A DNA stretch of 64,000 nt from Bacteroidota bacterium (GCA_031418215.1 JANOXC010000103.1:47323-111322), one strand, 5' to 3'; shown: positions 525 to 54,354, counted from the first letter of the stretch. Program-made: numbers and translations. The notes: generated from the letters alone by a model not told the origin.

Positions 525-3500
525 CTATTCAGCAATGAGTATACTTTTTTCAAGGATACGATCAAAAACACGAATCGCCTCTTCAACAGTTTGAATAGAG
601 GTAAATGACAAACTAAGTTTGCTCTTCTCCTCCTTCATCTTACACAACCGTGGATTGGCTTGCACAAACTGCAAAACATTTGCAAATCTTGAAGTCTGAA
701 AATATCCGGATTCAGAATTGCTGATAAAGTAACCTTTCAATAATTTATTTTTCAAAATAATTTTCTCAAAACCAATTTCTCGAGCTCGCCAGCGCAGACG
801 AATCGTATGCATTAAATCATAAATTTGCTTTGGAGGAGCACCAAAACGATCGCGGAGATTATTCTCATATGCTTTTAGCTTTTCTTCTGTTTCCAGTTCA
901 TCCAATTCTTTATATAAACTAAGTCGTTCAGAAATACTAGTTACATAATCATCAGGTATGCGCATTTCGAGGTCAGTATCAATTTGACAATCATTGACGA
1001 ATTTCTTTTCTTCCTCCACAGGAAATAAATCCTTGTAGTCTGTTTCTTTTAATTCCTGCAATGCTTCATCTAAAATTTTCTGGTACATTTCATAACCAAT
1101 TTCTGAAATGAAACCGCTTTGTTCGCCGCCCAATAAATTTCCCGCACCGCGAATGTCAAGGTCACGCATGGCGACGCTAAATCCGCTTCCCAGTTCTGCA
1201 TGTTCCTCAATGGCTTTTAGTCGTTGTCTTGCTTCAGGCGTCTGAACCGTAAGCGGTGGTGCCAACAAATAACAAAATGCTTTTTTATTGGAGCGCCCAA
1301 CCCGTCCACGCATTTGATGCAAATCACTTAGTCCGAAATTTTGCGCATTGTTGATGATGATGGTATTGGCATTGCTGATATCCAATCCCGATTCAACGAT
1401 TGTTGTGGAAACGAGGACATCATTATCACCTTCAATAAAATTCATTAAAACATTTTCCAATTGATCTCCATCCATTTGTCCATGCCCAACTTCTACCCTC
1501 ACTCCCGGACACAACTTCTGTATCATTACAGCAATGTCATGAATATCGCCAATCCTGTTATGAATGAAAAACACCTGTCCGCCACGCGACACTTCATAAA
1601 GAATTGCTTCTTGAATTAACTTATCATTAAACACATGCACTTCAGTATTCACCGGAAAACGATTTGGTGGCGGTGTATTAATAACTGACAAATCTCTTGC
1701 TCCCATCAATGAGAATTGTAGCGTTCGGGGAATGGGTGTTGCTGTTAATGTTAATGTATCAACATTGATACGCACTGCTTTTATTTTTTCCTTTGCTGCT
1801 ACCCCAAACTTTTGTTCTTCATCAATAATAAACAATCCCAAATCTTTAAATACAATGTCTTTGCTTAATAAGCGATGGGTACCTATCACAATATCAACTT
1901 TACCTGATTTCAATTTTTCAATGGTTTCCTTTTGCTGTGCGGCGGTTTTAAATCTACTGATATAATCAATGGTACAAGGGAAGTTTTTTAAACGTTCGGT
2001 AAATGTTCTGTAGTGTTGTGTTGCAAGAATTGTAGTAGGGACTAAAATAGCCACCTGCTTGCCATCGGCAACAGCTTTGAATGCAGCACGAACCGCTATC
2101 TCTGTTTTTCCAAATCCCACATCGCCACAAATCAAACGATCCATGGGAAACTCGCGCTCCATATCTTTCTTTACATCAACAGTTGATTTCACCTGGTCAG
2201 GTGTATCTTCATAAATGAAAGATGCTTCCAGTTCCGTTTGCATGTAGGTGTCTTTTGTAAATGCAAACCCTTTTTGCGCACGACGCTTTGCATATAAGGC
2301 AATTAGATCTTTTGCAATATCCTTAACACGCTTCTTCGTCTTTTGTTTTAATGTCGCCCAGGTTGTTGAACCAAGTTTATTCAACACAGGAGCAGCTCCT
2401 TCTTTACCGGTATATCTTGCAATACGGTGCAAAGAGTGTATACTGATATATAAAATGTCGTGATCCTTATAAACCAAACGGATGGCTTCCTGAGGTTTTC
2501 CACTAACGTCAATTGTTTCCAATCCCGCAAACCGTCCTACACCATGATCAATATGAGTAATAAAATCACCTGGTTTTAAACTGTATAATTCCTTTAATGT
2601 AATGGCTTCAGTCCTGCTGTAATTTTTTCTTAGCCTGAAACGATGATATCGATCGAACACCTGGTGATCGGTGTAACAAGCAAACTTTAAATCATGATCT
2701 ATAAACCCTTCATGAATTGCTACATTGAGTGGAAAAAAACTCAATGCTTGACCTTCAAACTCAGCAGGCTTTTTTATGTCTTCCAAAATAGCATAAATAC
2801 GCTCCGTTTGCTTCGGCGAATCAGAAAATATAATACTGGAATATTTTTGCTGTTGATTTTTATAAAATTGTTGTACCAGCAGATCAAAATTTTTATTGAA
2901 ATGCTGCGGCATTGTCATGCTAAACACAAAGTTTTCCTCATGTTCGAAATAAGATTTGCCACCGAACTCAATATTTCGATGTGCGCCAATCCGCTCAATG
3001 GTTTGTGCTGCGGTGTCGAACACTTCTGCAATCTTTAATACCACTTGCTGCTCTTCTGAATGATAGGAGTCACCGTATTTATCTGAAATCGTATGGAAGG
3101 CTGTCTTCAAATACTCCACAATATATTCCAGATTCTTCGACCATATTACTGCCGCCTCAGGTATAAAATCAAAAAACGATTGATGCTCTTCTCTAACCAA
3201 TCCCCTTTGGACATTTGGAATTACCGTCACAAAATGCATGATAGTTTCCGATAATTGTGTGGAAGGATCAAAGGTGCGGATGGATTCTATTTTGTCGCCA
3301 TTTAACTCAATTCGAAAAGGCAATTCATGAGCGAAGGAATATATATCGATGATACCACCACGTATGGCAAACTGTCCGGGTTCATAAACAAAATCATTGC
3401 GGTCGAATTCATTCTCTACCAAAAATTCCAACATAAAATCAACTGACAATGACTGGCCAACACGTGCCTCCATTGTGTTTCTTTCTAATGTCCGTTTTGT

Positions 3501-21838: not shown

Positions 21839-23875
21839 ATGCTGACAGAAAACCCTTCACAACATACCAATGAACTCATCCATGAAAGCAGTCCATACCT
21901 GTTGCAACATGCACACAACCCTGTAAACTGGCTTGCATGGAATGAATCCGCTTTAAAAAAAGCTGTTGATGAAAATAAATTGTTGTTGATCAGCATTGGT
22001 TATTCTTCCTGTCATTGGTGTCATGTGATGGAGCATGAGTGTTTCGAAGATGAAGAAACAGCAGCCATCATGAATAAATATTTTATATGTGTTAAAGTTG
22101 ACAGAGAAGAACGTCCCGATGTTGATGCTATATATATGTCGGCAGTACAATTAATAACAGGACGGGGTGGCTGGCCTTTGAATTGCATTACACTCCCAGA
22201 CCAACGTCCAATTTATGGTGGCACCTATTTTCCCAAACAGCAATGGCAGCAAGTGTTGGTACAGGTTGCAACATTATTTGAAAAAGAACCAGATCAATGC
22301 ATACAGTATGCCAGCGACCTCACCCAAGGCGTAAAAAAGATGGAGCTGGTTCAAAAATCAGTTGATTCATTTGATGAGATTGCTATAAACGCAATAGATT
22401 TTGTCAAAAATTTAGCAGCACATTTTGACAAAGAGAACGGCGGCATGAACCGCGCACCTAAATTTCCAATGCCGGCCAACTGGGAATTATTATTGCAACT
22501 GTATTACCATACCGGTAAAAACGAATGTCTGAATCAAGTTGATCTCACCTTAACAAAAATGGCTTATGGTGGTATTTATGACCAGCTGGCTGGTGGTTTT
22601 GCAAGATACTCAACAGATAATTTTTGGAAAGTGCCACACTTTGAAAAAATGTTGTATGACAATGCACAATTAGTTTCACTTTACTCCAATGCATTCCTGG
22701 TAACAGGAAATGCTTTATACAAATCGGTGGTTTATGAAACGTTGGAATTTATTTCTCATGAAATGACATCTTCAGAAGGCGGCTTCTATTCAGCATTAGA
22801 TGCCGACAGTGAAGGCATGGAAGGCAAATATTATATCTGGAAAAAAGCTGAAATTGAAAATATATTAGTCGAACATGCAGTAGTTTTCTGTGATTATTAC
22901 AATGTGAACGAATTGGGTTATTTGGAAGACGACTACTATATATTGTTGCGTGATAAAGAGAATAAAGAGATTTCATCCAACCATAATATTACTGAAAAGC
23001 AATTGCATATTATTATTGCCGAATGTAAAAAATTATTGAATGAAGAAAGATTTAAGCGCATTCGTCCCGGACTGGATGACAAGCAAATCTGTTCCTGGAA
23101 TGCATTAATGCTGAAAGGATATACGGATGCTTATGTTGCGTTTAATGAAGAACATTTTTTAAAAACTGCATTAAAAAATGCGACATTGCTATTTGAAAAA
23201 TTCTCGTTGGGGGACCATCTTTTTCGCATCTATAAAGAAGGCAATGCAAAAATCAATGGCTATCTGGAAGATTATGCATTAGTAATTGAAGCATTTATTG
23301 CATTGTATCAATGTACAGGCAATCTGCAATGGCTGTCAAAATCCAGGTCTTTGACTACAATTGTTTTGGATGAGTTTTATGATGTAGAAAGCGGCATGTT
23401 TTATTTTACATCAAAAAAAGACAATCCACTCATTGCCCGTAAAATGGAGATTCAGGATAATGTTATTTCATCTGCCAATTCTACCATGGCAAAAAACCTG
23501 ATTCGCTTAAGTCATTATTACTCATTGCCGGAATTTTCAGCCATTGCCAAACAGATGATTGCAAATATTTCTGAAGACATTACCAAGAATACCCCATGGT
23601 ATAGCAATTGGGCCCAAGCTGCTTTGCTATTGAAAAACACGATTTATGAAGTAGTGATTTTTGGAAACGAAGCAACCCTTTTTTATAAAGAATTTTCAAA
23701 ACACTTTTTACCAAATGTTTTATTTGCATTTTCGACAGAAGAAAACTCCTTGCCTGTTTTTGAAAACCGTTTTGTAAAAGGCGAAACACTGATCTATATA
23801 TGCCGCGACAATAGCTGTTTGGCTCCTGTAAAGTCTGTTGGTGAGGCATTGAAATTATTAAAATCAGAAAATTGA
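21839..23875 (+). CDS. thioredoxin domain-containing protein (DUF255/YyaL family)
   Basis: The N-terminal thioredoxin-like region has the CHWCH motif. It is followed by an (alpha/alpha)6-barrel-like region. The protein is 678 aa. Confidence 0.85.
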
Positions 23876-23904
23876 TTTGCAAATTCATTAGCCCGGTAAT
23901 TAAT

Positions 23905-23959
23905 AGAACAGGAATTAATTCCTGTTCTAAAAAAAACGGGGAACAAAATTCCCCGTTTT
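23905..23959. terminator. bidirectional rho-independent terminator pair: palindrome AGAACAGGAATTAATTCCTGTTCT, then A8, then CGGGGAACAAAATTCCCCG, then TTTT
   Basis: The structure is seen directly in the sequence. It lies between the convergent DUF255 gene (+) and recQ (-). Each hairpin has a U-run on the appropriate strand. Confidence 0.75.
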
Positions 23960-23981
23960 AAAAATCTAACATCAAGTTCTA

Positions 23982-26174
23982 TTAATTCCCCAACTCACTC
24001 ATAAACTTTATGCGCATGAGTCGAATATCATCTTCACTGTAATCATCTTCTCCAAGTTCAGCAAGGGCGTCCTCCACTGAGTCGGTTTCAGCAGTGCGGA
24101 AATAATCATAAACTTCATCCTGTCTGTCTTCATCAATCACTTCATTGATGTAATAATTAATATCAATTTTTGTACCTGACGAAACGATGGTTTCAATTTC
24201 ACCCAGCAAATCACGCAGCGGCATTCCTTTGGCACGCGCCATATCGTTCAATGAAATTTTACGGTCGATATTCTGAATGATGTAAACCTTTAATACACTT
24301 TTGTTGGCAACACTTTTAATGATGAGATCCATTGGGCGTTCAATCTCATTTTCCTCCACATAATGCTGAATCATTTCAATAAAAGGCTTTCCATACTTTG
24401 AAGCCTTACCACCTCCCACACCTGTGATGTTTTTCATTTCCTCCATGGTGATGGGATAATTCGTCGCCATCTCTTCTAATGAAGGATCTTGGAAAATTAC
24501 GAAAGGAGGAAGATTTAATCGCTTAGCCTCATTCTTCCGCATATCTTTCAGCATGGCAAACAATTCTTCATCTGCAGCACCGCCACCACCTACTCCGGAG
24601 AAATCATCATCTTCATCAGTCTCCGTATTTTCAAAATTGGCATCCAGCGCAATTTTAAATGTCGTTGGATTTTTCAAATATGCTTTAGCCTTGTCGCTAA
24701 ACTTCAACAATCCGTAATTATCAATATCCTTAGTAAGCAGCCCGGCTAATAATGCCTGACGGATTAATGCAGTCCAGAATCGCTCATTCTGATCAATGCC
24801 TTCACCGAATATTTCCAGCTTATCATGTTTATAGGTCTTCACAGCTTGGTCTGTTTTACCTACCAATACATTGACCACATGCTCTGACTGGTGTTTTTCT
24901 TTCACTGCCAACACTGCTTCCAGCATCAACTTTAATTCTTCTTGCGCTTCCACCATTTGTTTTGGATGAATACAGTTATCACAACTTTGGCAGTTATCCT
25001 GATCGTAATGCTCTCCAAAATAATGTAACAGTACTCTCCTCCGGCAAACGGAAGTTTCTGCATACCCAACTGTATCCAATAACAATTGCTTCCCAATTTC
25101 CTGCTCAGCAACCGGTTTGCCTTTCATGAATTTCTCCAATTTCTCAATGTCCTTGTAACTATAAAAACAAACACATTTTCCTTCACGTCCATCTCTGCCA
25201 GCCCTTCCTGTCTCTTGGTAATATCCTTCAAGGCTTTTTGGAATATCGTGGTGTATAACAAAACGTACATCGGGCTTATCGATACCCATTCCAAAAGCAA
25301 TTGTGGCCACTATCACATCCACATCTTCCATCAGAAACATATCCTGGTGTTTGGCGCGGGTAGTTGCATCCAGCCCGGCATGATAGGGTAAAGCTTTTAC
25401 TCCATTTACTGTTAATGTTTGTGCAACCTCCTCCACTTTCTTCCGGCTCAGGCAATAAATGATTCCTGATTTACCGGAGTTCTGTTTTACGAACTTGATA
25501 ATTTCTTTAATAACATTAATCTTCGGACGTATTTCGTAATATAAGTTAGGTCGGTTAAATGATGCTTTGAAAACGGTAGCATCCATCATGCCCAGGTTCT
25601 TTTGAATGTCGGCCTGTACTTTTTCCGTTGCCGTAGCTGTAAGCGCTATGATTGGCACTTCCCCAATCATCTCAATAATCGGTCTAAGTCGGCGGTATTC
25701 AGGACGGAAATCATGGCCCCACTCGGAGATACAATGTGCTTCATCAATGGCAAAAAATGAAATATTGACTTCCTTGAGAAATTTAATATTTTCCTCTTTA
25801 GTCAAAGACTCAGGTGCTACAAAGAGCAACTTTGTCTTTTCATCCATTATGTCTTTCCTGACCTTGGTTATTTCCAATTTGGAGAGCGATGAATTCATGA
25901 AGTGTGCCACACCGTCTTCTGTATTAAAACCACGGATGCTATCCACCTGGTTCTTCATCAATGCAATTAATGGAGAAATTATAACGGCGGTGCCAGGGCT
26001 CATTAAAGCAGGCAACTGATAACACATTGACTTACCACCACCTGTCGGCATAATTACAAAAGTATTTTTGCGCTCCAACACATTTTTTATAACGGCTTCT
26101 TGGTCGCCTTTAAACGACTCATAACCAAAAAATTTATTCAAAGCATCAATAAGGGTATTCTCGGCAACTAACAT
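23982..26174 (-). CDS. recQ: ATP-dependent DNA helicase RecQ
   Basis: It has the DEAH box (DEAHCISEWGHDFRPEY), an RQC zinc-binding Cys cluster and a C-terminal HRDC-like region. The protein is 730 aa. Confidence 0.95.
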   Translation of the reverse strand: MLVAENTLIDALNKFFGYESFKGDQEAVIKNVLERKNTFVIMPTGGGKSMCYQLPALMSPGTAVIISPLIALMKNQVDSIRGFNTEDGVAHFMNSSLSKLEITKVRKDIMDEKTKLLFVAPESLTKEENIKFLKEVNISFFAIDEAHCISEWGHDFRPEYRRLRPIIEMIGEVPIIALTATATEKVQADIQKNLGMMDATVFKASFNRPNLYYEIRPKINVIKEIIKFVKQNSGKSGIIYCLSRKKVEEVAQTLTVNGVKALPYHAGLDATTRAKHQDMFLMEDVDVIVATIAFGMGIDKPDVRFVIHHDIPKSLEGYYQETGRAGRDGREGKCVCFYSYKDIEKLEKFMKGKPVAEQEIGKQLLLDTVGYAETSVCRRRVLLHYFGEHYDQDNCQSCDNCIHPKQMVEAQEELKLMLEAVLAVKEKHQSEHVVNVLVGKTDQAVKTYKHDKLEIFGEGIDQNERFWTALIRQALLAGLLTKDIDNYGLLKFSDKAKAYLKNPTTFKIALDANFENTETDEDDDFSGVGGGGAADEELFAMLKDMRKNEAKRLNLPPFVIFQDPSLEEMATNYPITMEEMKNITGVGGGKASKYGKPFIEMIQHYVEENEIERPMDLIIKSVANKSVLKVYIIQNIDRKISLNDMARAKGMPLRDLLGEIETIVSSGTKIDINYYINEVIDEDRQDEVYDYFRTAETDSVEDALAELGEDDYSEDDIRLMRIKFMSELGN

Positions 26175-45063: not shown

Positions 45064-48000
45064 TCAGGCTTCTTTTTTCTCTGATACTTTATTACGAACC
45101 TTGGTGTGATAATAAACTGATGGCTGTGTATCCAGCTCTTCCAATAAACTGTAAGAACGAGGATCGGCATTTGCTTTCACTATCTCACTTTCTTTATCCA
45201 AAGAATCACCAAAGATGATTGCATTGGTAGGGCATGATTGTGCACATGCTGTTTTTATCTCTCCGTCAATTGGTCGACGTCCTGCTTTCTTGGCATCAAG
45301 CTTACCATATTGAATACGTTGAATACACATCGTGCATTTTTCCATTACACCACGTGAGCGAACAACGACATCTGGATTCAACACCATCTTGCCTAAGTTG
45401 TCATACTGGTTATAAGGGAACTGCTCATTCTCGTTGTAGCGGAACCAATTAAATCTTCTTACTTTATATGGACAGTTATTCGCACAATATCTGGTACCTA
45501 CACAACGGTTGTAAGCCATCATGTTTAATCCTTCCATACTATGTGTTGTTGCTACAACTGGACAAACCGTTTCACAAGGTGCATGATTACAATGTTGACA
45601 CATAACCGGCTGAAACACCACCTCCGGGTTATCGGCTGCCGGCTTCTCCATCTCGGCATACATACTTAATTTGCCTAATTTTTTTGCTTCAGCATTCTCT
45701 TTAGTCGTATCGCTGCTGTAATAACGATCGATACGGATCCAATGCATCTCGCGGCTGCGGCCAATTTCATCTTTACCAACAACAGGAACATTATTTTCCG
45801 CAGTACAAGCAACCACACAAGCGCCACATCCAATACATGCATTCAAATCAATGGACATGTTCCAGAAGTGATTTGTTTTGGGGTGACCGGGATTTTTTTC
45901 CGTAGCCCACAAGTCCAACTCACCAGGTTTCTTCTTACCATAAGGAGAAGCTATTGTTAATTGGGCATTACCTGAATTTGGTTTTACTAACCACTCAGCT
46001 AATGTTGTCTCCTTTACAATTTCGCGACCCATCATGGTATGGTGCGTCTGCGTTGTTGCAAGTTCATATAAATCATCCGGAGTCTTTGTTACACTTACAC
46101 CGGTTGCATAATATTTCATCGCTCCATTCTCAACGCTAACGAATGGATAAACGTTAACTCCAACATTGTTGCCAGCTTTACCAACCTTTGTTCTTCCATA
46201 TCCTAAGGCTATGGCTAAAGTTTCATCCGTCATTCCGGGTTGCAGCAATACAGGGCCTTTTATTTTAAAGTCTCCTGCCTTCACTTCAATTACTGTTCCC
46301 TGAACGTAACCCATCTTCTTTGCATATGCAGGTAATACAGCAAAGTAATTATCCCAACACACTTTTGAAACCGGATCCGGTAATTCCTGCAACCATGGAT
46401 TATTAGCCTGGTTACCATCACCCAATCCTGTTTTTGTATACAATACTAATTCAACACCAGGTTTTGGTTGTTGTGTTTTTGCAGCAGCATCTTGAATATT
46501 GCCTGTGAATGCCACAACAGCACCGGCATTAACATTTATTTCAAATATTCCGTCCTGTAAAGATTTATTCCAAAAAGCTTCAAATGAACTCATACCAGAC
46601 TGCTGAGAAAACATATTTGCTTTCCAATACTCTTCTATATATGTATGGAAATCCGTATTTGCAGCTTCAGCCCAAGTTAATAGACTTGATTGTGCTTGTC
46701 TTGTATCAAACAAATTCTCAATAGTTGGTTGGCCGAGGCTAAAAACACCTTTTATGGGTTCAGCATCACTCCATGACTCCAGATAATGAGAATCAGGACA
46801 GATATAATCACAAACGGCGGAAGTTTCGTCCTCGCGATCAGCAAAAGAAATTTTTACGCCTGCTTTATTAATTGCTGCTTGCAATGCAGGCATGCTATAT
46901 CCGGGGTTTGCATTATATATAATCACAGCTCCCACTTCACCGTTGTTTAGTTCAGTGATAAGTGAAGCAACTGCTTCATCGTTACTTGCACGTATTAAAT
47001 AGGGCTGATCAGCATTGATGGTGTTACCATAGCTTCCCAACATACTGTTAATAGCATTCACAAGCACTTGCTCATTGGGATCATTAGATCCGGAAACAAC
47101 AAGAGCCTTTCCTTTTGCATTCCATAATTCCTGTGCTACGGAGTCAATTGTTTTATCGGCTGGAATGGATGGTGCATTTACTGCTACTCCTCCTGACAAT
47201 GATGCAATCTTATTATATAAGGCAGCCACTGCAGCACTCTGTTCACTTGCACGAATCTTGTAGCGGTTGTCGGCATTTGATCCGGTTAAAGAAAGCATGG
47301 TTTCAAACTGAATATGTCTTGACATATTTTTCTTGCCCCCACGCAGTTTCCTTGTAGCTGCATACTGACGTGAAATTTCAATTGGCGACAACCAATTCAC
47401 GAGGAAGTCAGCACCGAAGCTTACAATTACATCTGCCTTATCAAAGCGGTATCCCGGAATTGAAAACTTTCCAAATGACAATTCATTTCCTTTTAATAAG
47501 CCGTAACTTGAAACAGCATCATACACCACTTGTTTGGTAGTAGGGTATTTAGCAGTAAAATCAGTCATCACCTTTTTAGTAGAAGGACTGCTAACAGAAG
47601 AAGAGAGAATAACAATCTTTTTTCCCGATGCACTTACTTCAGCTAATTTCTTTTTTATTTCACCATCGACAGAAGCCCATGTTGATACTTTTTTATTGGC
47701 TAACGGACCTTTTAAACGTGCACTGTCATATAATCCCAAAACAGAAGCCTGCACCCGTGCACTCGTTCCACCTTTTGAAAATGAAGATAATTCATTGCCT
47801 TCGATTTTAATTGGGCGACCTTCACGTGTCTTTACAAGCACACTGCAATAATCACTGCCGTCAAAATAGGTAGAAGCATAATAATTAGGAACCCCTAATG
47901 TTAACTCCTCAGGCTTTATTACATAAGGAATTGCCTTTTTAACAGGGGCCTGACAAGCTGCTAAGGAAGCGGCTGCTACACTGAATCCCATGAATTTCAA

Positions 48001-48153
48001 AAAGTCTCTTCTTGAGGTGTTATCTGTTGAAGATGCTTTATTACTCATCACTTCATCAACAGGAAGGTGCTCAAAAAATTCATTGTTCTTCAAACGAACG
48101 AATTCCGCATCGTTTTGCAGTTCTTCAACACCTTTCCAATATTGTTTTTCCAT
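45064..48153 (-). CDS. actB: ACIII subunit ActB (fused molybdopterin-oxidoreductase-like B1 plus 4Fe-4S ferredoxin B2; Tat signal)
   Basis: The Tat motif is RRDFLKFMGFSVAAASLAAC. It has a large MopB-like domain. The C-terminal region has several CxxCxxCxxxCP iron-sulfur clusters. Confidence 0.9.
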   Translation of the reverse strand: MEKQYWKGVEELQNDAEFVRLKNNEFFEHLPVDEVMSNKASSTDNTSRRDFLKFMGFSVAAASLAACQAPVKKAIPYVIKPEELTLGVPNYYASTYFDGSDYCSVLVKTREGRPIKIEGNELSSFSKGGTSARVQASVLGLYDSARLKGPLANKKVSTWASVDGEIKKKLAEVSASGKKIVILSSSVSSPSTKKVMTDFTAKYPTTKQVVYDAVSSYGLLKGNELSFGKFSIPGYRFDKADVIVSFGADFLVNWLSPIEISRQYAATRKLRGGKKNMSRHIQFETMLSLTGSNADNRYKIRASEQSAAVAALYNKIASLSGGVAVNAPSIPADKTIDSVAQELWNAKGKALVVSGSNDPNEQVLVNAINSMLGSYGNTINADQPYLIRASNDEAVASLITELNNGEVGAVIIYNANPGYSMPALQAAINKAGVKISFADREDETSAVCDYICPDSHYLESWSDAEPIKGVFSLGQPTIENLFDTRQAQSSLLTWAEAANTDFHTYIEEYWKANMFSQQSGMSSFEAFWNKSLQDGIFEINVNAGAVVAFTGNIQDAAAKTQQPKPGVELVLYTKTGLGDGNQANNPWLQELPDPVSKVCWDNYFAVLPAYAKKMGYVQGTVIEVKAGDFKIKGPVLLQPGMTDETLAIALGYGRTKVGKAGNNVGVNVYPFVSVENGAMKYYATGVSVTKTPDDLYELATTQTHHTMMGREIVKETTLAEWLVKPNSGNAQLTIASPYGKKKPGELDLWATEKNPGHPKTNHFWNMSIDLNACIGCGACVVACTAENNVPVVGKDEIGRSREMHWIRIDRYYSSDTTKENAEAKKLGKLSMYAEMEKPAADNPEVVFQPVMCQHCNHAPCETVCPVVATTHSMEGLNMMAYNRCVGTRYCANNCPYKVRRFNWFRYNENEQFPYNQYDNLGKMVLNPDVVVRSRGVMEKCTMCIQRIQYGKLDAKKAGRRPIDGEIKTACAQSCPTNAIIFGDSLDKESEIVKANADPRSYSLLEELDTQPSVYYHTKVRNKVSEKKEA

Positions 48154-48260
48154 AGCTTAGTTATTGGTTATTGGGCTAAAACGTACATTTATAAATGCAC
48201 TCAAACTATCCCAATTCTTTTTATTTTCCTGATAACTTAATTATCTAATTACTGAATTAT

Positions 48261-49496
48261 TTAATAATGGCAACGCGCACATTCTAACCCACCAATTTTA
48301 TCGACGGTTATTTTTGCATCCTTACCATATTGCTTTTTCATATCCTCATGAAGCGCTGTGTAATATCCATTGCCTTCCATTTTTACTTCTGTATCACGGT
48401 GACACTGGATGCACCATCCCATATTTAAAGGAGAGAACTGCTTAACTACCTCCATTTCCTGAACAGGGCCATGACAGGTTTGGCATTCAATCTTGCCTAC
48501 TACTACATGCTGAGAGTGGTTGAAGTATGCCAAATCTGGCAGATTATGAATACGTACCCACTGAATAGCTTTTCCGGGACCGGTATATTGTGCCTTTGAC
48601 GCATCCCATCCAACTGCATCATATATTTTTTGAATTTCTTCTTTCCCATATTGCGCCCCGGTCTGAACATATTTATGACAATTCATGCAGACATTTGGAG
48701 AAGGTATTCCGGCGTTTTTACTTTTCTCTGCTCCTGAGTGGCAGTATTTGCAATTGATGCCATTGGTCCCGGCATGCATAGCATGTGAAAATTTAATAGG
48801 CTGATCAGGTTGATAATTTAGTTCCTGACCTATTCCGGCCAAAGCATACCATCCCTTGTAACTGCTTACTACAGCACCCACAATTAAAAATACAGCTATT
48901 AATTTTTTGTGTTCGCGAATCCAGTGCTTGGTTCCCGCTTTGCCTTTCAAAACAACCGGTTCTGGCGTCCCTTCATTCTGACGAACTACTCTTTCAAGGC
49001 TTTTCTTTACCCTATTTAATATAGCGTAAATTCCAATCAACGCAATTACAACGATAACCAGCATCCAAGGAAAGCCTTCATCTTCCCCGGAAGCAGCTCC
49101 GGCAACTGGTGCGGCAGTTGTTGCTACTGCAGGCGCCTTATCATTTTCTGCTTTAACATAGGCCAAAACGGCTTTGATTTCCTCATCATTTAATGCCTGA
49201 GATGGCATCACCACTTTGTTGTTTTCCTCAAAAAGTTTCACAGCAGTGGCTTCGCCGCTTTTAATTACAGCCTGCGAATTCTTTATCCAAGGAAGAAGCC
49301 ATGCGAGGGTGCGTCTTTTCTCAACATCCTTTAACCCGGGGCCAATTACTTTACTGTCGCTTGTTGCATGACAGGAAGCACAATTGTTTTGGAACAGGAC
49401 TTTACCATCAGGCTGTGCTGATATGGGTTGGGAAGAAAACAAGAATAAAAACCCAATAAGGGCGATACAGCATTTACCGGTAATCTTGTGAATCAT
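48261..49496 (-). CDS. actA: ACIII multiheme cytochrome c subunit ActA with an additional N-terminal monoheme class-I cytochrome c domain (6 CXXCH in total)
   Basis: The CXXCH motifs are CASCH, CKYCH, CMNCH, CQTCH, CIQCH and CARCH. There are two internal TM helices. The start was trimmed to the Met that gives a signal peptide (MIHKITGKCCIALIGFLFLFSS). Confidence 0.85.
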   Translation of the reverse strand: MIHKITGKCCIALIGFLFLFSSQPISAQPDGKVLFQNNCASCHATSDSKVIGPGLKDVEKRRTLAWLLPWIKNSQAVIKSGEATAVKLFEENNKVVMPSQALNDEEIKAVLAYVKAENDKAPAVATTAAPVAGAASGEDEGFPWMLVIVVIALIGIYAILNRVKKSLERVVRQNEGTPEPVVLKGKAGTKHWIREHKKLIAVFLIVGAVVSSYKGWYALAGIGQELNYQPDQPIKFSHAMHAGTNGINCKYCHSGAEKSKNAGIPSPNVCMNCHKYVQTGAQYGKEEIQKIYDAVGWDASKAQYTGPGKAIQWVRIHNLPDLAYFNHSQHVVVGKIECQTCHGPVQEMEVVKQFSPLNMGWCIQCHRDTEVKMEGNGYYTALHEDMKKQYGKDAKITVDKIGGLECARCHY

Positions 49497-49829
49497 AGTT
49501 ACATGATTAATAGTTAAGCGTTTACGGAAGATTTTTACCAATTCCTGACAATTATCCCGCAAAAGTGTGGGCAAATTTAACAGAAACAACAGGAAAGCAA
49601 ATTTTTATGGGGGATATTTTTACACGTTTTTCCACTTATTTTTAGTTCAGGCTTAAGTTAATTGGAATCAACTACTAAAAAAATTAAAAATGAAGAATCA
49701 AAATTTTTTTAAAATGCCGAAGATCGATTTTGAAAGCAAATGAATAATAGAAGACGTTGAAGTATGCTTCCGTTTTATTTTCTACAACAAAATACATTTC
49801 TATTGTTTTACCAATACTTTTGCATTGAA

Positions 49830-51091: not shown

Positions 51092-51472
51092 TGTAAAACT
51101 TAAGATGCTAACACCTTGGCATTCGGATATTTCACTGTCCACAATTTTAAGGCAGACATGTGAGGGATAGTAATAAAGGTGCGTTCATCTAATTGAACTT
51201 TAATTTTTGCTTTCGTAGGAGCCTGCGTCATGATGCGGTTCTTTACTCTACTGGGATATTTATTTTTCATAGTACGAAGATAACCTTATTTAGCCAAATA
51301 AATTGCATAAACACTAATAAATATTACACTTATCAACAACGTAACATTGAAAATCAATGGGTAAGCTTCATTTGTTAGCTAAACTTTAACTTTTAGCTCA
51401 ATTCCTTTACAGTTGAGGGTTTGAAGGGCATTGGTCATTATTAGCCAAAAAGACCTTCATTCTTGCTTGAAC

Positions 51473-51480
51473 TATATTTG
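51473..51480 (+). promoter_or_regulatory. candidate Bacteroidota -7 promoter element TATATTTG (TAnnTTTG), 20 nt upstream of the SIMPL gene ATG
   Basis: It matches the consensus and the spacing is typical of short Bacteroidota leaders. Confidence 0.3.
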
Positions 51481-51500
51481 CAACCCAATTAGCTAATCCG

Positions 51501-52223
51501 ATGAAAAAAACAATACTCTTGGCCCTTTTGACAACTTTTACATGGAATGCCTTGTTTGCCCAACCAACCAATAGTTTACCCATTCCGGTTAAAAAAATTG
51601 AAGTTACCGGAATCGCTGAGATGGAAGTTGTGCCTGATGAAATATATATAGGTATAACACTTCAGGAATACTACAACAAACAAAAAGTAAAAATTGATAT
51701 TAATGAGATTTCGAAAAAGTTCCTGGCAACATGCGAGATGTCGGGTATCACTAAAGAAAGAATAGAAGTTCAAAATATGTCGGGATTTGATAATACGAAT
51801 TGGTGGAATAGCAGAAGAAAAAAGGAACAACCTGATTTATTGCAAGCTACAACTTATTTATTAAAATTCAACGCTCCCGGTGAAGTTGATAAGCTTGTAA
51901 ATATGTTGGATGATAACGCTACGCAGAATGTATTTGTTAGTAAAACATCAAGCTCAAAGGAAAAAGAATACCGTAAACAACTTAAAATTCAAGCTTTACA
52001 AAACGCAAAAGTAAAAGCAAACTATTTGTTGGAAGGTATTGGTGAAAAAGCAGGAAAGGTATTGTTTGTGAAAGAAGTTGACGCTGCACAACCAGAGTAT
52101 CCAATGTATCAAATGAAAATGGCAAATACAATGATGGCAGGTGATGCCGGCGCCAATGAAGGAATTAATTTCAAAAAAATAAAATACAGTTTTCAGGTGG
52201 AAGCACATTTTGCAATTGAATAG
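51501..52223 (+). CDS. SIMPL domain (DUF541) periplasmic protein
   Basis: It has a signal peptide and the SIMPL-like N-terminal core KIEVTGIAEMEVVPDEIYIGITLQ. The protein is 240 aa. Confidence 0.7.
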   Translation: MKKTILLALLTTFTWNALFAQPTNSLPIPVKKIEVTGIAEMEVVPDEIYIGITLQEYYNKQKVKIDINEISKKFLATCEMSGITKERIEVQNMSGFDNTNWWNSRRKKEQPDLLQATTYLLKFNAPGEVDKLVNMLDDNATQNVFVSKTSSSKEKEYRKQLKIQALQNAKVKANYLLEGIGEKAGKVLFVKEVDAAQPEYPMYQMKMANTMMAGDAGANEGINFKKIKYSFQVEAHFAIE

Positions 52224-52232
52224 AAAAAAAAC

Positions 52233-52436
52233 AATTTGAAAATTCGAAAATTCGACAATTTGAAAATGAAGCCATAATTAATCCTTATCTGTATAAGAGG
52301 CAAGGATGAGTCTGAATTTTTAAACTGAAAATTGAATTATTCTCCTCAATAATTTATTGATAAAATGAAAGGAATATATATTCCATTTAAATAAACAGAC
52401 AATTATCTAATTTTCAAATTGTCGAATTTTCAAATT
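52233..52436. repeat. inverted repeat pair: 27-bp perfect IR (AATTTGAAAATTCGACAATTTGAAAAT / reverse complement; the left copy has an 8-bp internal duplication) bracketing a 142-bp AT-rich segment
   Basis: Seen directly in the sequence. IR-L is at 52233-52267 and IR-R at 52410-52436. It is intergenic, between the SIMPL gene and the cytochrome c gene. Confidence 0.8.
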
Positions 52437-52473
52437 AAAAACATCTATTTTCACCAACCAAACCCAACACACT

Positions 52474-53088
52474 ATGTTCACAGGAATGTTACACACCCAT
52501 AAATTAGTAGTTACCCTTTTTCTGCTGATTTACCTCATCAAAACTATTTTACTGCTGCTGAATAAAAATGAAACACTGCAAAGTTTTATCAAAAAAACAC
52601 GCATCGCTGAAATGATCATTAGTGTTGCTTTTCTGGCAACAGGAATATATCTGGCTAATAACAGTGGCAACATCGGACAATTATTTTGGATCAAAATTAT
52701 ATGCGTTGCTGCTTCCATCCCAATTGCTGTAGTTGCCTTTAAAAAATCAAAAAAAGCACTTGCGGTATTGGCTCTTTTATTAATAATAGCTTCCTACGGT
52801 TTAGGTGAAATGGGAAAGAAAGGTAAGAAAACCAATCCTCAGGAATTTGCAAATGTTGAAGCAGCACAATTGGGCCAATCGATTTATGAAAAGAAATGCA
52901 TGAATTGTCATGGCGCAGATGGAAAACTGGGACTCAGCGGTTCAAAAGATCTGACGGTTTCCGTATTGACACGGGAAGAAAAAATAATTGCAATCAAAGA
53001 AGGCAAGAATGCCATGATGAGCTTTAAGGATCAACTGGACGATGAGCAGATAAACGCTGTCGTTGACTATGTTTCTCAATTCAAATAG
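52474..53088 (+). CDS. membrane-anchored class I c-type cytochrome (4 TM N-domain plus monoheme CMNCHG domain)
   Basis: Four hydrophobic helices are followed by a single CXXCH motif and a Met-containing distal region (NAMMSF). Confidence 0.75.
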   Translation: MFTGMLHTHKLVVTLFLLIYLIKTILLLLNKNETLQSFIKKTRIAEMIISVAFLATGIYLANNSGNIGQLFWIKIICVAASIPIAVVAFKKSKKALAVLALLLIIASYGLGEMGKKGKKTNPQEFANVEAAQLGQSIYEKKCMNCHGADGKLGLSGSKDLTVSVLTREEKIIAIKEGKNAMMSFKDQLDDEQINAVVDYVSQFK

Positions 53089-53130
53089 TTTAGATGTTTT
53101 TCTTTATACTCCGGCAAAATTATATATATA

Positions 53131-54354
53131 ATGGACCAGAATAATTTTGATGTAATCGTAATTGGTGGCGGCATTGTTGGGCTTGCTTCAGCATACAAAT
53201 TAAATGTGCATCATCCTCATTTAAAAATTTGCGTACTTGAAAAGGAAAGCGCTGTTGCCGCACATCAGACCGGGAGAAACTCAGGAGTAATTCATTCAGG
53301 CATTTATTATAAGCCGGGGAGTTATAAAGCAAAGAATTGTGTGGATGGCAGACGCGAACTTGTGCAATTTGCGCGTGAGCATAATGTGCGACATGATGTA
53401 TGCGGTAAAATCATCGTTGCAACACAGGAAAAAGAATTACAGCACATGGAACGCGTTTATAATAACGGCATCCAAAATGGTGTGGAAGATTTAGAAAAAA
53501 TTACGGCAGCTCAAATAAAGGAAATAGAACCTTTTTGTACAGGTATTGCCGGATTGCGTGTTGGTTGCACAGGAATTATTGATTTCGTTGGTGTATGTAC
53601 TACGCTATCATCCCTGATTGAAAATAAATTTCCGGGAAGTAAAGTAAAATTGAATCATGAGGTTAAAGCTTTTGTTAAAGCTGCTGATCACACAACCCTT
53701 ATTACCAATCATGGAAACTTTACTGCTAAATATTTAGTAAACTGCACCGGATTATTTGCTGATCGAATTGCAAAAAAAGATGATGTTAAACCCGGCATGC
53801 AAATCGTTGGATTCCGAGGCGATTATTATGAATTGACTCCTGAAGCACAACATAAAGTCAAGCACCTTATTTACCCTGTTCCTGATCCGCAATTTCCATT
53901 TTTAGGAGTGCACTTTACACGCATGCTCAACCATCCAACTGAATGCGGCCCAAATGCCGTCTTTACATTTAAAAGAGAAGGATATGGTAAAACAGACTTT
54001 GACCTTCGTGATACGTTGGAAGCAATTACTTACGTTGGCACCTGGAAATTGTTTTTTAAACATTGGCGCTTCGGACTTGATGAATACAGACGTGCTTTTT
54101 CAAAAAAATTATTTCTTGAACGCTTACAACGACTAGTTCCATCCTTAACAATGAGTGATATCGAACCTGGTCGTGCCGGAGTAAGAGCGATGGCGCTTGA
54201 TAGTGAGGGAAATATGATTGATGATTTCAAAATCGTACATAGCGAACGATCCTTACATGTTTTAAATGCTCCTTCTCCGGCTGCTACTGCTTGTCTTGCC
54301 ATCGGAAGTGCGGTGAACGATATGGCGGCTGCACATTTTCAACTTGACAGATAG
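53131..54354 (+). CDS. lhgO: L-2-hydroxyglutarate oxidase/dehydrogenase (FAD-dependent)
   Basis: The N-terminal FAD motif DVIVIGGGIVGLASA is present. The DAO-family length of 407 aa fits, and the overall pattern is LhgO-like. Confidence 0.75.
   Translation: MDQNNFDVIVIGGGIVGLASAYKLNVHHPHLKICVLEKESAVAAHQTGRNSGVIHSGIYYKPGSYKAKNCVDGRRELVQFAREHNVRHDVCGKIIVATQEKELQHMERVYNNGIQNGVEDLEKITAAQIKEIEPFCTGIAGLRVGCTGIIDFVGVCTTLSSLIENKFPGSKVKLNHEVKAFVKAADHTTLITNHGNFTAKYLVNCTGLFADRIAKKDDVKPGMQIVGFRGDYYELTPEAQHKVKHLIYPVPDPQFPFLGVHFTRMLNHPTECGPNAVFTFKREGYGKTDFDLRDTLEAITYVGTWKLFFKHWRFGLDEYRRAFSKKLFLERLQRLVPSLTMSDIEPGRAGVRAMALDSEGNMIDDFKIVHSERSLHVLNAPSPAATACLAIGSAVNDMAAAHFQLDR

Follow-up and report, generated by a model that had tools for sequence, protein, structure and literature searches.

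In the 64,000-nucleotide stretch of Bacteroidota DNA analysed here (GCA_031418215.1 JANOXC010000103.1:47323-111322; hereafter the window), an inverted repeat at positions 52233-52436 separates a gene of the SIMPL family from a gene for a membrane-anchored c-type cytochrome. The two arms of this repeat are arrays of 8-nt units that face each other across a long core, and the element is one instance of a widespread, apparently undescribed class of such facing octamer arrays in Bacteroidota. The function that we favor, and to which we give roughly even chances of being correct, is that of a co-transcribed intercistronic A/U-rich hairpin that would act post-transcriptionally.

Each arm contains four units, and the units of both arms are oriented toward the core. 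An earlier note on this DNA, made from the sequence alone, had described the arms as 27-bp perfect inverted repeats. Their position was correct, but the contiguous exact match is 22 nt long, and extending it to 27 nt requires that one unit of the left arm be skipped; the segment 52241-52267 differs from the 27-mer of the right arm (52410-52436) by one mismatch. The 8-bp duplication noticed in the left arm is indeed present and represents one extra array unit, with AAAATTCG at 52239-52246 and again at 52247-52254. Likewise, the 142-nt segment 52268-52409 is AT-rich as described (24.6% G+C versus 38.3% in the window), and the distance from the end of the right arm to the ATG at 52474, when recomputed, is again 37 nt. 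The left arm starts 9 nt past the TAG stop codon of the SIMPL gene, and the right arm includes only two G residues on the plus strand. Small local hairpins are found in the core, formed by ATCCTT (52282-52287) with AAGGAT (52303-52308) and by the palindrome GGAATATATATTCC (52371-52384).

A chance origin of the inverted repeat is excluded. Searching for the 27-mer with at most three mismatches gave 3 matches, compared with 0 in 100 shuffles, and only one other perfect inverted repeat of 20 nt or more, within 400 nt, exists in the 64-kb window. With a three-unit position weight matrix (PWM), the left and right arms score 34.4 and 35.3 bits, respectively, whereas scores do not exceed 14 bits in 20 shuffles and stay below 4 bits elsewhere in the window. 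No second copy of the arms was found in the 64-kb window by either the 27-mer search or the PWM scan, and neither the window nor ~1 Mb of related loci yielded a homologue of the core. The predicted RNA fold of 52220-52480 has a free energy of -50.6 kcal/mol (z = -5.0) and includes a 22-bp perfect helix that is lengthened by imperfect pairs.

We define the class as facing arrays, each with at least three consecutive [AG]AT[TG]NGNN units in strict 8-nt phase, where the units that conform to this consensus are mostly AATTTGAA and AATTCGAC. The 20-mer AAATTCGACAATTTGAAAAT has 31 matches in species-representative genomes, the window's own locus not being among them. Twenty-four of these lie within arrays, and all 24 are from Bacteroidota, including Chitinophagaceae, Saprospiraceae, Cyclobacteriaceae, Spirosomataceae, Flavobacteriales, Rikenellaceae, Lentimicrobiaceae, and others; the remaining seven, which are in other phyla or outside arrays, are isolated and about as numerous as chance predicts. 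The exact 20-mer occurs only once or twice per genome. One carrier that can be cultured is Sediminibacterium magnilacihabitans DSM 22423, with an array on PVEQ01000006.1. By scanning metagenome contigs with a degenerate 24-mer (AATTYGAM x3), we recovered at least 120 stretches, and the class counts given hereafter are among the matches listed. The 120 metagenome loci listed carry at least 220 arrays of three or more units, and six matches to the degenerate 24-mer were found in viral contigs.

The arrays are intergenic and have a pronounced polarity. Neighboring arrays that are no more than 400 nt apart are convergent in 39 cases, tandem in 23, and divergent in only 1, and 104 arrays are oriented away from the nearest gene versus 24 toward it. 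For the 25 facing pairs with both flanking genes called, these genes are co-directional in 22 cases, convergent in 3, and divergent in none. Placement relative to codons is likewise precise. Following a stop codon, 64 of 105 arrays start within 10 nt, with a spike where TAA overlaps AATT; preceding a start codon, 35 of 90 end 4-10 nt (mostly 5-7) upstream of the ATG, and 7 of 90 lie at a distance of 21-40 nt. The copy in the window shares with the class its three or more phased units per arm (four in each), its convergent polarity, its co-directional flanking genes, and a 5′ arm within about 10 nt of the stop codon. It is atypical in that its 3′ arm ends 37 nt rather than 4-10 nt before the start codon and in that its loop (140 nt between the arrays) is the largest among the pairs examined.

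Members of the class recur in conserved operons. Flanking genes include the ribosomal-protein junctions S3/L16 (six species), L4/L23, L2/S19, L6/L18, and L18/S5, as well as the respiratory and energy genes SdhA/SdhB, NuoD/NuoE, ATP synthase gamma, ETF, and ActD. The rpsC-rplP pair is located exactly between the S3 stop and the L16 start in six of eight species (L051, L065, L104, L107, L140, and L163). Two of these loci, L104 and L140, use another unit family (AATKWGCT) in both arms, which we take to be lineage-level co-variation of unit type. Arrays also occur directly after tRNA-Trp genes, and in locus L123 a facing pair (982-1153) occupies the spacer of a ribosomal RNA (rRNA) operon, with tRNA-Ala (1162-1235, minus strand) on one side and the 5′ end of 23S rRNA (874, minus strand) on the other. 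Because this pair sits in an rRNA spacer, the class reaches beyond protein-coding junctions. Furthermore, because members are found inside ribosomal-protein, sdh, nuo, and rRNA operons, the elements of the class must be transcribed through, and therefore a terminator, a promoter, or a DNA switch is ruled out as the general function.

The geometry of the window copy had suggested to the earlier note an invertible switch. In such a switch, a site-specific recombinase would flip 52268-52409 between the 22-27-bp inverted repeats and thereby switch expression of the cytochrome c gene. Bacteroidota are rich in invertible elements (invertons), and perfect 22-bp inverted repeats do bracket a short segment upstream of a gene. 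Nevertheless, this explanation is very unlikely. The same 410-nt region is identical in seven independent assemblies from seven samples, with one orientation, an equal number of units, and contigs that are unbroken at the repeats; this comparison is made at the consensus level, and minority orientations in the reads would be beyond its resolution. The inverted orientation would create the junction GAAAATTCGAAAATTCGACAATTTGAAAATTAGATAATTGTCTG. A promoter is also lacking in the segment, as the note had itself reported: TAnnTTTG is absent from both strands of the intergenic region, and the best approximation (7/8, TAATTTTC at 52408) is located at the inner edge of the right arm. On the 10.7-kb contig that surrounds the element, none of the called genes belongs to a recombinase Pfam family. 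In addition, most class members have non-identical arms, and a switch would be senseless in the essential operons and the rRNA spacer where the class is found.

At the window locus, the sole consensus promoter able to drive transcription through the element is the perfect Bacteroidota -7 box upstream of the SIMPL gene. No consensus -7 box was found in the intergenic region before the cytochrome c gene. Orthologues of the latter gene have perfect -7 boxes 21-23 nt before the ATG in loci L034 (TAAATTTG) and L036 (TAACTTTG), and the window has a degenerate sequence at the corresponding position (Table 1). Because the cytochrome c gene has no such promoter, the SIMPL box is perfect, and no terminator is predicted between them, co-transcription of the two genes across the hairpin is the most economical reading of this promoter layout. 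The consequence for the locus is modest in that the cytochrome c gene, whose product is the membrane cytochrome named by the earlier note, probably relies on read-through from the SIMPL promoter over a long hairpin.

Table 1. Positions of the repeat, its parts, and the flanking genes in the window.
Feature	Coordinates	Strand	Remarks
Perfect Bacteroidota -7 box TATATTTG	51473..51480	+	20 nt before the ATG of SIMPL
Upstream gene, SIMPL (PF04402) family, 240 aa	51501..52223	+	stop 9 nt before the left arm
AAAAAC, left copy of 6-nt direct repeat	52227..52232	+	abuts the element exactly
Left (5′) arm	52233..52267	+	four in-phase 8-nt units (AATTTGAA AATTCGAA AATTCGAC AATTTGAA) plus AAT; oriented toward the core
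22-bp perfect stem, 5′ half (GAAAATTCGACAATTTGAAAAT)	52246..52267		fold prediction and repeat search
Loop/core between the arrays	52268..52404		no promoter consensus, no meaningful open reading frame
Right (3′) arm	52405..52436	-	four 8-nt units on the minus strand (AATTTGAA AATTCGAC AATTTGAA AATTAGAT); oriented toward the core
22-bp perfect stem, 3′ half	52410..52431		fold prediction and repeat search
AAAAAC, right copy of 6-nt direct repeat	52437..52442	+	abuts the element exactly
Degenerate sequence TATTTTCA	52446..52453	+	aligned with the position of the perfect -7 box of relatives
Downstream gene, fusion of a SirB2-like membrane-anchored N-terminal domain and a c-type cytochrome (CXXCH), 204 aa	52474..53088	+	

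The earlier note had also proposed that the repeat forms an unusually long RNA stem that could act in processing or termination. Of these, a putative function in processing is best supported by the operon context, whereas for termination no canonical terminator features were found. If the long hairpin were a terminator or attenuator, RNA polymerase would halt or pause at it once past the SIMPL gene, and its strength, its place right behind a stop codon, and its U-rich 3′ arm agree with such a role, as does the presence of a small G+C hairpin or a canonical terminator in the loop of a few members (L007, L017, and L059). We judge this role distinctly improbable, however. No terminator-like site is predicted in 51400-53200, the stem is not G+C-rich, and it is followed by AAAAACATC rather than by a U-tract, while the window has a canonical A-tract/GC-hairpin/T-tract terminator elsewhere (23930-23964). 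Termination would be lethal inside the ribosomal-protein, sdh, and nuo operons and the rRNA spacer; just 3 of the 25 pairs have convergent flanking genes; and the cytochrome c gene lacks its own promoter.

Three other candidates were rejected. The arrays do not conform to promoters of the form TTTG ... nAnnTTTG, because their G-to-G spacing is 24 nt and not ~26-27 nt, they lack the TA of the -7 box, and transcription from either arm would run into the loop. An analogy with integron attC sites, which place a hairpin right after each open reading frame (ORF), fails because RYYYAAC/GTTRRRY core sites are absent and the synteny of the flanking genes is kept in relatives without the element. Finally, the frequent inner AATG does not open small ORFs with a consistent reading frame, as judged by inspection.

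For the hairpin that we favor, we propose the following sequence of events. Transcription through the spacer would most likely start at the SIMPL promoter. The two arrays would then pair into a long A/U-rich hairpin, with 22 perfect base pairs and a free 142-nt loop at this copy. As an intercistronic double-stranded RNA (dsRNA), this hairpin would be cleaved by a dsRNA-specific nuclease or would block exonucleases, and the cleavage or the exonuclease barrier would set the relative stability and translation of both cistrons. In typical members, whose 5′ arm begins on the stop codon and whose 3′ arm ends 5-7 nt before the AUG, the hairpin would juxtapose stop and start and mask the leader, and this masking would couple downstream initiation to upstream translation or processing. 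The proposal takes as its observed basis the anatomy of the element, the polarity of the arrays and their positions relative to codons, the operon context, the conservation of the arms, and the stability of the locus.

Bacteroidota lack Shine-Dalgarno sequences, and the fixed polarity of the arrays fits translation initiation of this kind. The unit AAUUUGAA provides UGA in all three frames within 24 nt after a stop codon, and its complement UUCAAAUU has no G and hence offers no AUG, GUG, or UUG just before the next start. Start regions in Bacteroidota have to be free of structure, and AUG is depleted between -21 and -1 (PMC6847099). At the window copy, the 37-nt leader 52437-52473 (AAAAACATCTATTTTCACCAACCAAACCCAACACACT) has no G at all and is A/C-rich and CAA-rich, which is typical of translation start regions that have no Shine-Dalgarno sequence.

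The arms themselves also differ with respect to the transcribed strand. In co-directional pairs, the arm that precedes the start codon is 63% canonical in its units versus 43% for the one that follows the stop codon (Wilcoxon p = 0.003; n = 21, some of them orthologous). At rpsC-rplP in four species, identity is 0.93 for the 3′ arm, 0.79 for the 5′ arm, and 0.64 for the loops (0.57 when shuffled), and it is 0.60-0.84 at third codon positions of rplP in four species. Together, the asymmetry in purity and the conservation at rpsC-rplP argue for a constraint that would be specific to the transcribed strand.

These same data bear on the possibility that the arrays function as DNA. Phased AATT octamers could bind a nucleoid-associated or topology protein, in opposite orientation at each end, or could extrude a cruciform, and they would thereby influence local supercoiling or domain boundaries as has been proposed for the gyrase and IHF sites of bacterial interspersed mosaic elements (BIMEs). 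That the arms are conserved across loci and families without pairwise covariation would point to sequence-specific recognition rather than to a helix alone, the strict 8-nt phase and A/T-rich composition favor altered DNA structure, and the arrays are present in both non-coding (rRNA spacer) and coding contexts. However, the asymmetry of arm purity relative to transcription and the nucleotide-precise placement at stops and starts belong to RNA or translation rather than to duplex DNA, units spaced 8 bp apart do not stay in phase with the helical repeat, and there is no known candidate protein. We therefore regard a DNA-level role as improbable.

Several observations weigh against the hairpin reading. 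Identity is 0.811 between arms of the same locus and 0.810 between arms of different loci, with duplex energies of -21.6 and -21.5 kcal/mol, respectively, and mismatches on the sense strand show no significant bias toward G·U (20 versus 12, with 63 others). Pairing is generic because both arms are built from the same unit, and given this generic complementarity and the lack of a G·U preference, the locus-specific covariation typical of a selected RNA helix is missing. Where one arm has a variable unit, for example AATGTGGC, an internal loop usually results. The conservation of the arms could stem from tandem-repeat homogenization instead of selection. At the window copy, the 3′ arm is 37 nt from the ATG, compared with 5-7 nt typically, and the perfect stem begins 22 nt past the stop codon; with 37 nt separating the stem from the start region, masking and coupling cannot apply to this copy as proposed. 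Orthologous spacers of relatives whose cytochrome c is 71-80% identical have no element, and the AAAAAC repeat that flanks the window copy may be a record of insertion, or a chance occurrence in an A-rich spacer. Finally, read-through, RNA folding in vivo, nuclease processing, and coupling are all steps that we infer.

Several of these points are shared with the main rival of the hairpin reading, a selfish or neutral palindromic repeat that would have inserted in the spacer and would have no function of its own. Such a repeat could be a MITE (miniature inverted-repeat transposable element), a repetitive extragenic palindromic (REP) sequence, a Correia-like element, or a self-expanding tandem-repeat palindrome, and it would be retained because an insert that folds on itself does little harm within a transcribed spacer. 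We consider this explanation possible but rather unlikely. It is consistent with the terminal-inverted-repeat geometry (22 nt perfect, or 27 nt with one unit skipped), with the outer-to-inner polarity of 39 versus 1, which terminal inverted repeats always show, and with the generic complementarity of the arms, which is expected if every copy has the same ends. It would also account for the exact AAAAAC flanks. This is the only flanking repeat of more than 3 nt among 40 pairs, and repeats of 6 nt or more have a null frequency of ~0.002, so that ~0.08 would be expected in the set. The 6-nt repeat at this copy is a candidate for the flanking target-site duplication that the earlier note had suggested looking for, but such duplications do not exceed chance across the class, where the duplication is 0 nt in 29 of 40 pairs and the distribution equals the null.

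The genomic neighborhood speaks on both sides. The order SIMPL-cytochrome c-DAO is kept in relatives whose cytochrome c is 71-74% identical, and the spacers of those relatives are unrelated to that of the window and have no arrays, as an insertion would predict. Because these orthologous spacers are without it, the element is not needed for this gene pair. A comparison with empty sites gave no alignment between the spacers of relatives (71-80% protein identity) and that of the window except for the last ~30 nt before the ATG. Among ~40 pairs, no homology between the cores of different loci was found except for two neighboring pairs in L079 (2311-2509 and 3196-3362), which are ~700 nt apart and have cores homologous to each other, perhaps through local duplication or perhaps through mobility. 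Otherwise, the unrelated cores are difficult to reconcile with a selfish repeat, as are the core of the window copy without a homologue in ~1 Mb, the single copy in 64 kb, and the one or two occurrences of the exact 20-mer per genome. Furthermore, the rpsC-rplP junction is occupied in six of eight species with arms conserved above synonymous sites, the sharp positioning at stop and start codons and the strand-asymmetric purity of the arms are not predicted by random insertion, and the locus is invariant across the seven assemblies. As for the MITE proposed by the earlier note, the terminal inverted repeats and AAAAAC speak for it and the class-wide results speak against it, and this reading is weakly supported at most.

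Beyond a hairpin that acts on stability, the arrays could tentatively be viewed as a phylum-specific, sequence-defined translation module, although we hold this to be unlikely. In such a module, a G-poor array, (UUCAAAUU)n, lying 5-7 nt before the AUG would be a leader that recruits the ribosome, for example, via bS1, and the complementary array, (AAUUUGAA)n, fused to the upstream stop would mask this leader until a terminating ribosome or a dsRNA nuclease unmasks it. Neighboring cistrons in ribosomal-protein and respiratory-complex operons would thereby be coupled and expressed stoichiometrically, and the window copy would be a looser variant ahead of a membrane cytochrome c.

Whatever their precise role, the arrays are of interest because internal-cistron initiation and the balance of expression within Bacteroidota operons are poorly understood, and they offer a concrete handle that can be tested by mutation. 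The motif is conserved, fixed in orientation, and placed with nucleotide precision with respect to stop and start codons, and operons for ribosomal proteins, succinate dehydrogenase, NADH dehydrogenase, and rRNA harbor it repeatedly across the phylum. The arrays also give rise to false calls of invertons and MITEs in genomes of Bacteroidota, and as strong hairpins, they may disturb assembly and cloning. The significance is larger for the class than for the single atypical copy in the window.

Some further features of the window and of the metagenome loci deserve mention. Besides the element, the window has a single perfect inverted repeat of 20 nt or more, a 26-nt palindrome (TAGAACAGGAATTAATTCCTGTTCTA), which is followed immediately by a canonical bidirectional intrinsic terminator (A8-CGGGGAAC-AAAA-TTCCCCG-TTTTAAAAA); both are found at 23904-23964, between the convergent ORFs 21839-23875 (+) and 23982-26174 (-). 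On the minus strand at 45064-49589, 3-7 kb upstream of the element, are genes for a 1029-aa molybdopterin/4Fe-4S protein and a 442-aa multihaem cytochrome c, which, from inspection of the translations, look like subunits of alternative complex III; an ActD gene adjoins an octamer array in the metagenome set. In locus L016 (~1380-1440), an array adjoins a different palindromic repeat (GTCATTCCGAGGTACGAGGAATC ...) that is possibly another Bacteroidota intergenic repeat family. Locus L028, a 2.7-kb contig of a Mesohalobacter metagenome-assembled genome, is unusually repeat-dense, with four octamer arrays and long tandem repeats of ~20-nt units.

Comparison with known systems yielded no direct counterpart. 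Rfam 15 gave 0 matches at the gathering score in the whole window and 0 in six class loci, and a permissive scan of 52100-52600 returned only chance-level matches (E > 1). Searches of open-access full text for the octamer strings or for descriptions of Bacteroidetes MITEs or REPs yielded nothing relevant, which is not proof of novelty. The invertible promoters of Bacteroides are similar in having 15-30-bp inverted repeats that bracket a 100-400-bp segment upstream of a gene. The window copy differs from them in that its segment has no promoter, no orientation variants occur in the seven assemblies, and no recombinase was found nearby (10.7-kb contig), and the class differs in being found inside essential operons.

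REP/BIME sequences and enterobacterial repetitive intergenic consensus (ERIC) sequences, also known as intergenic repeat units (IRUs), resemble the arrays as extragenic imperfect palindromes that are non-coding and lie in transcribed operon spacers or 3′ untranslated regions. They fold in mRNA, where they influence how stable the upstream cistron is and how the downstream one is expressed. REPs are G+C-rich palindromes of 20-40 nt with a GTAG or CGTC tag and are mobilized by RAYT transposases (PMC3733652). In contrast, the arrays are A/T-rich octamers with neither tag at either end and a long variable loop (142 nt here), and their copy number per genome is apparently low. Correia elements, which are MITEs of Neisseria, are ~100-200 bp long with ~26-bp inverted repeats, are intergenic and co-transcribed, and form a long dsRNA stem; in size and geometry they are very close to this copy (204 bp, with 22-27-bp arms). 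Their dsRNA stem has been reported as an RNase III target. They differ from the arrays in that their interior is conserved, their target duplication is TA, and each genome has hundreds of copies, whereas the arrays have unrelated interiors, no class-wide duplication, and one copy in 64 kb.

The RNase III hairpins of the T7 type are likewise irregular hairpins of at least 20 bp that have an internal loop and lie between the cistrons of a polycistronic mRNA. After their cleavage, a protective 3′ hairpin remains and the downstream leader is released. Class members frequently contain a single variable unit without a match, which would give an internal loop as in these hairpins. Sites of this type call for at least ~20 bp of dsRNA in a polycistronic transcript, and the predicted helix reaches this length in a transcript that would probably span both genes. 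The arrays differ in that the repetitive sequence of their arms is conserved across loci, whereas that of T7 sites is not.

The closest phenomenon that has been described is that of the TAACTGA heptamer direct repeats, or long simple sequence repeats, of marine Beggiatoaceae, Cyanobacteria, and five Bacteroidetes (MacGregor 2015, PMC4679880). These are also short tandem intergenic units that are strongly orientation-specific and provide stop codons in the forward reading; the neighbors of related species do not have the arrays, and a post-transcriptional or translational role has only been proposed (PMC4679880). The octamer arrays differ in having an 8-nt rather than a 7-nt unit of another sequence, in forming facing pairs able to fold into a hairpin, in being spread across Bacteroidota rather than sporadic, and in preferring conserved operons as their context. 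Nevertheless, the two share an orientation rule. The heptamers occur in forward orientation a few nucleotides before start codons and in reverse after stop codons (PMC4679880), and the octamers follow a comparable rule, being tandem, intergenic, oriented, and start-adjacent at the class level (35 of 90, always in the same orientation).

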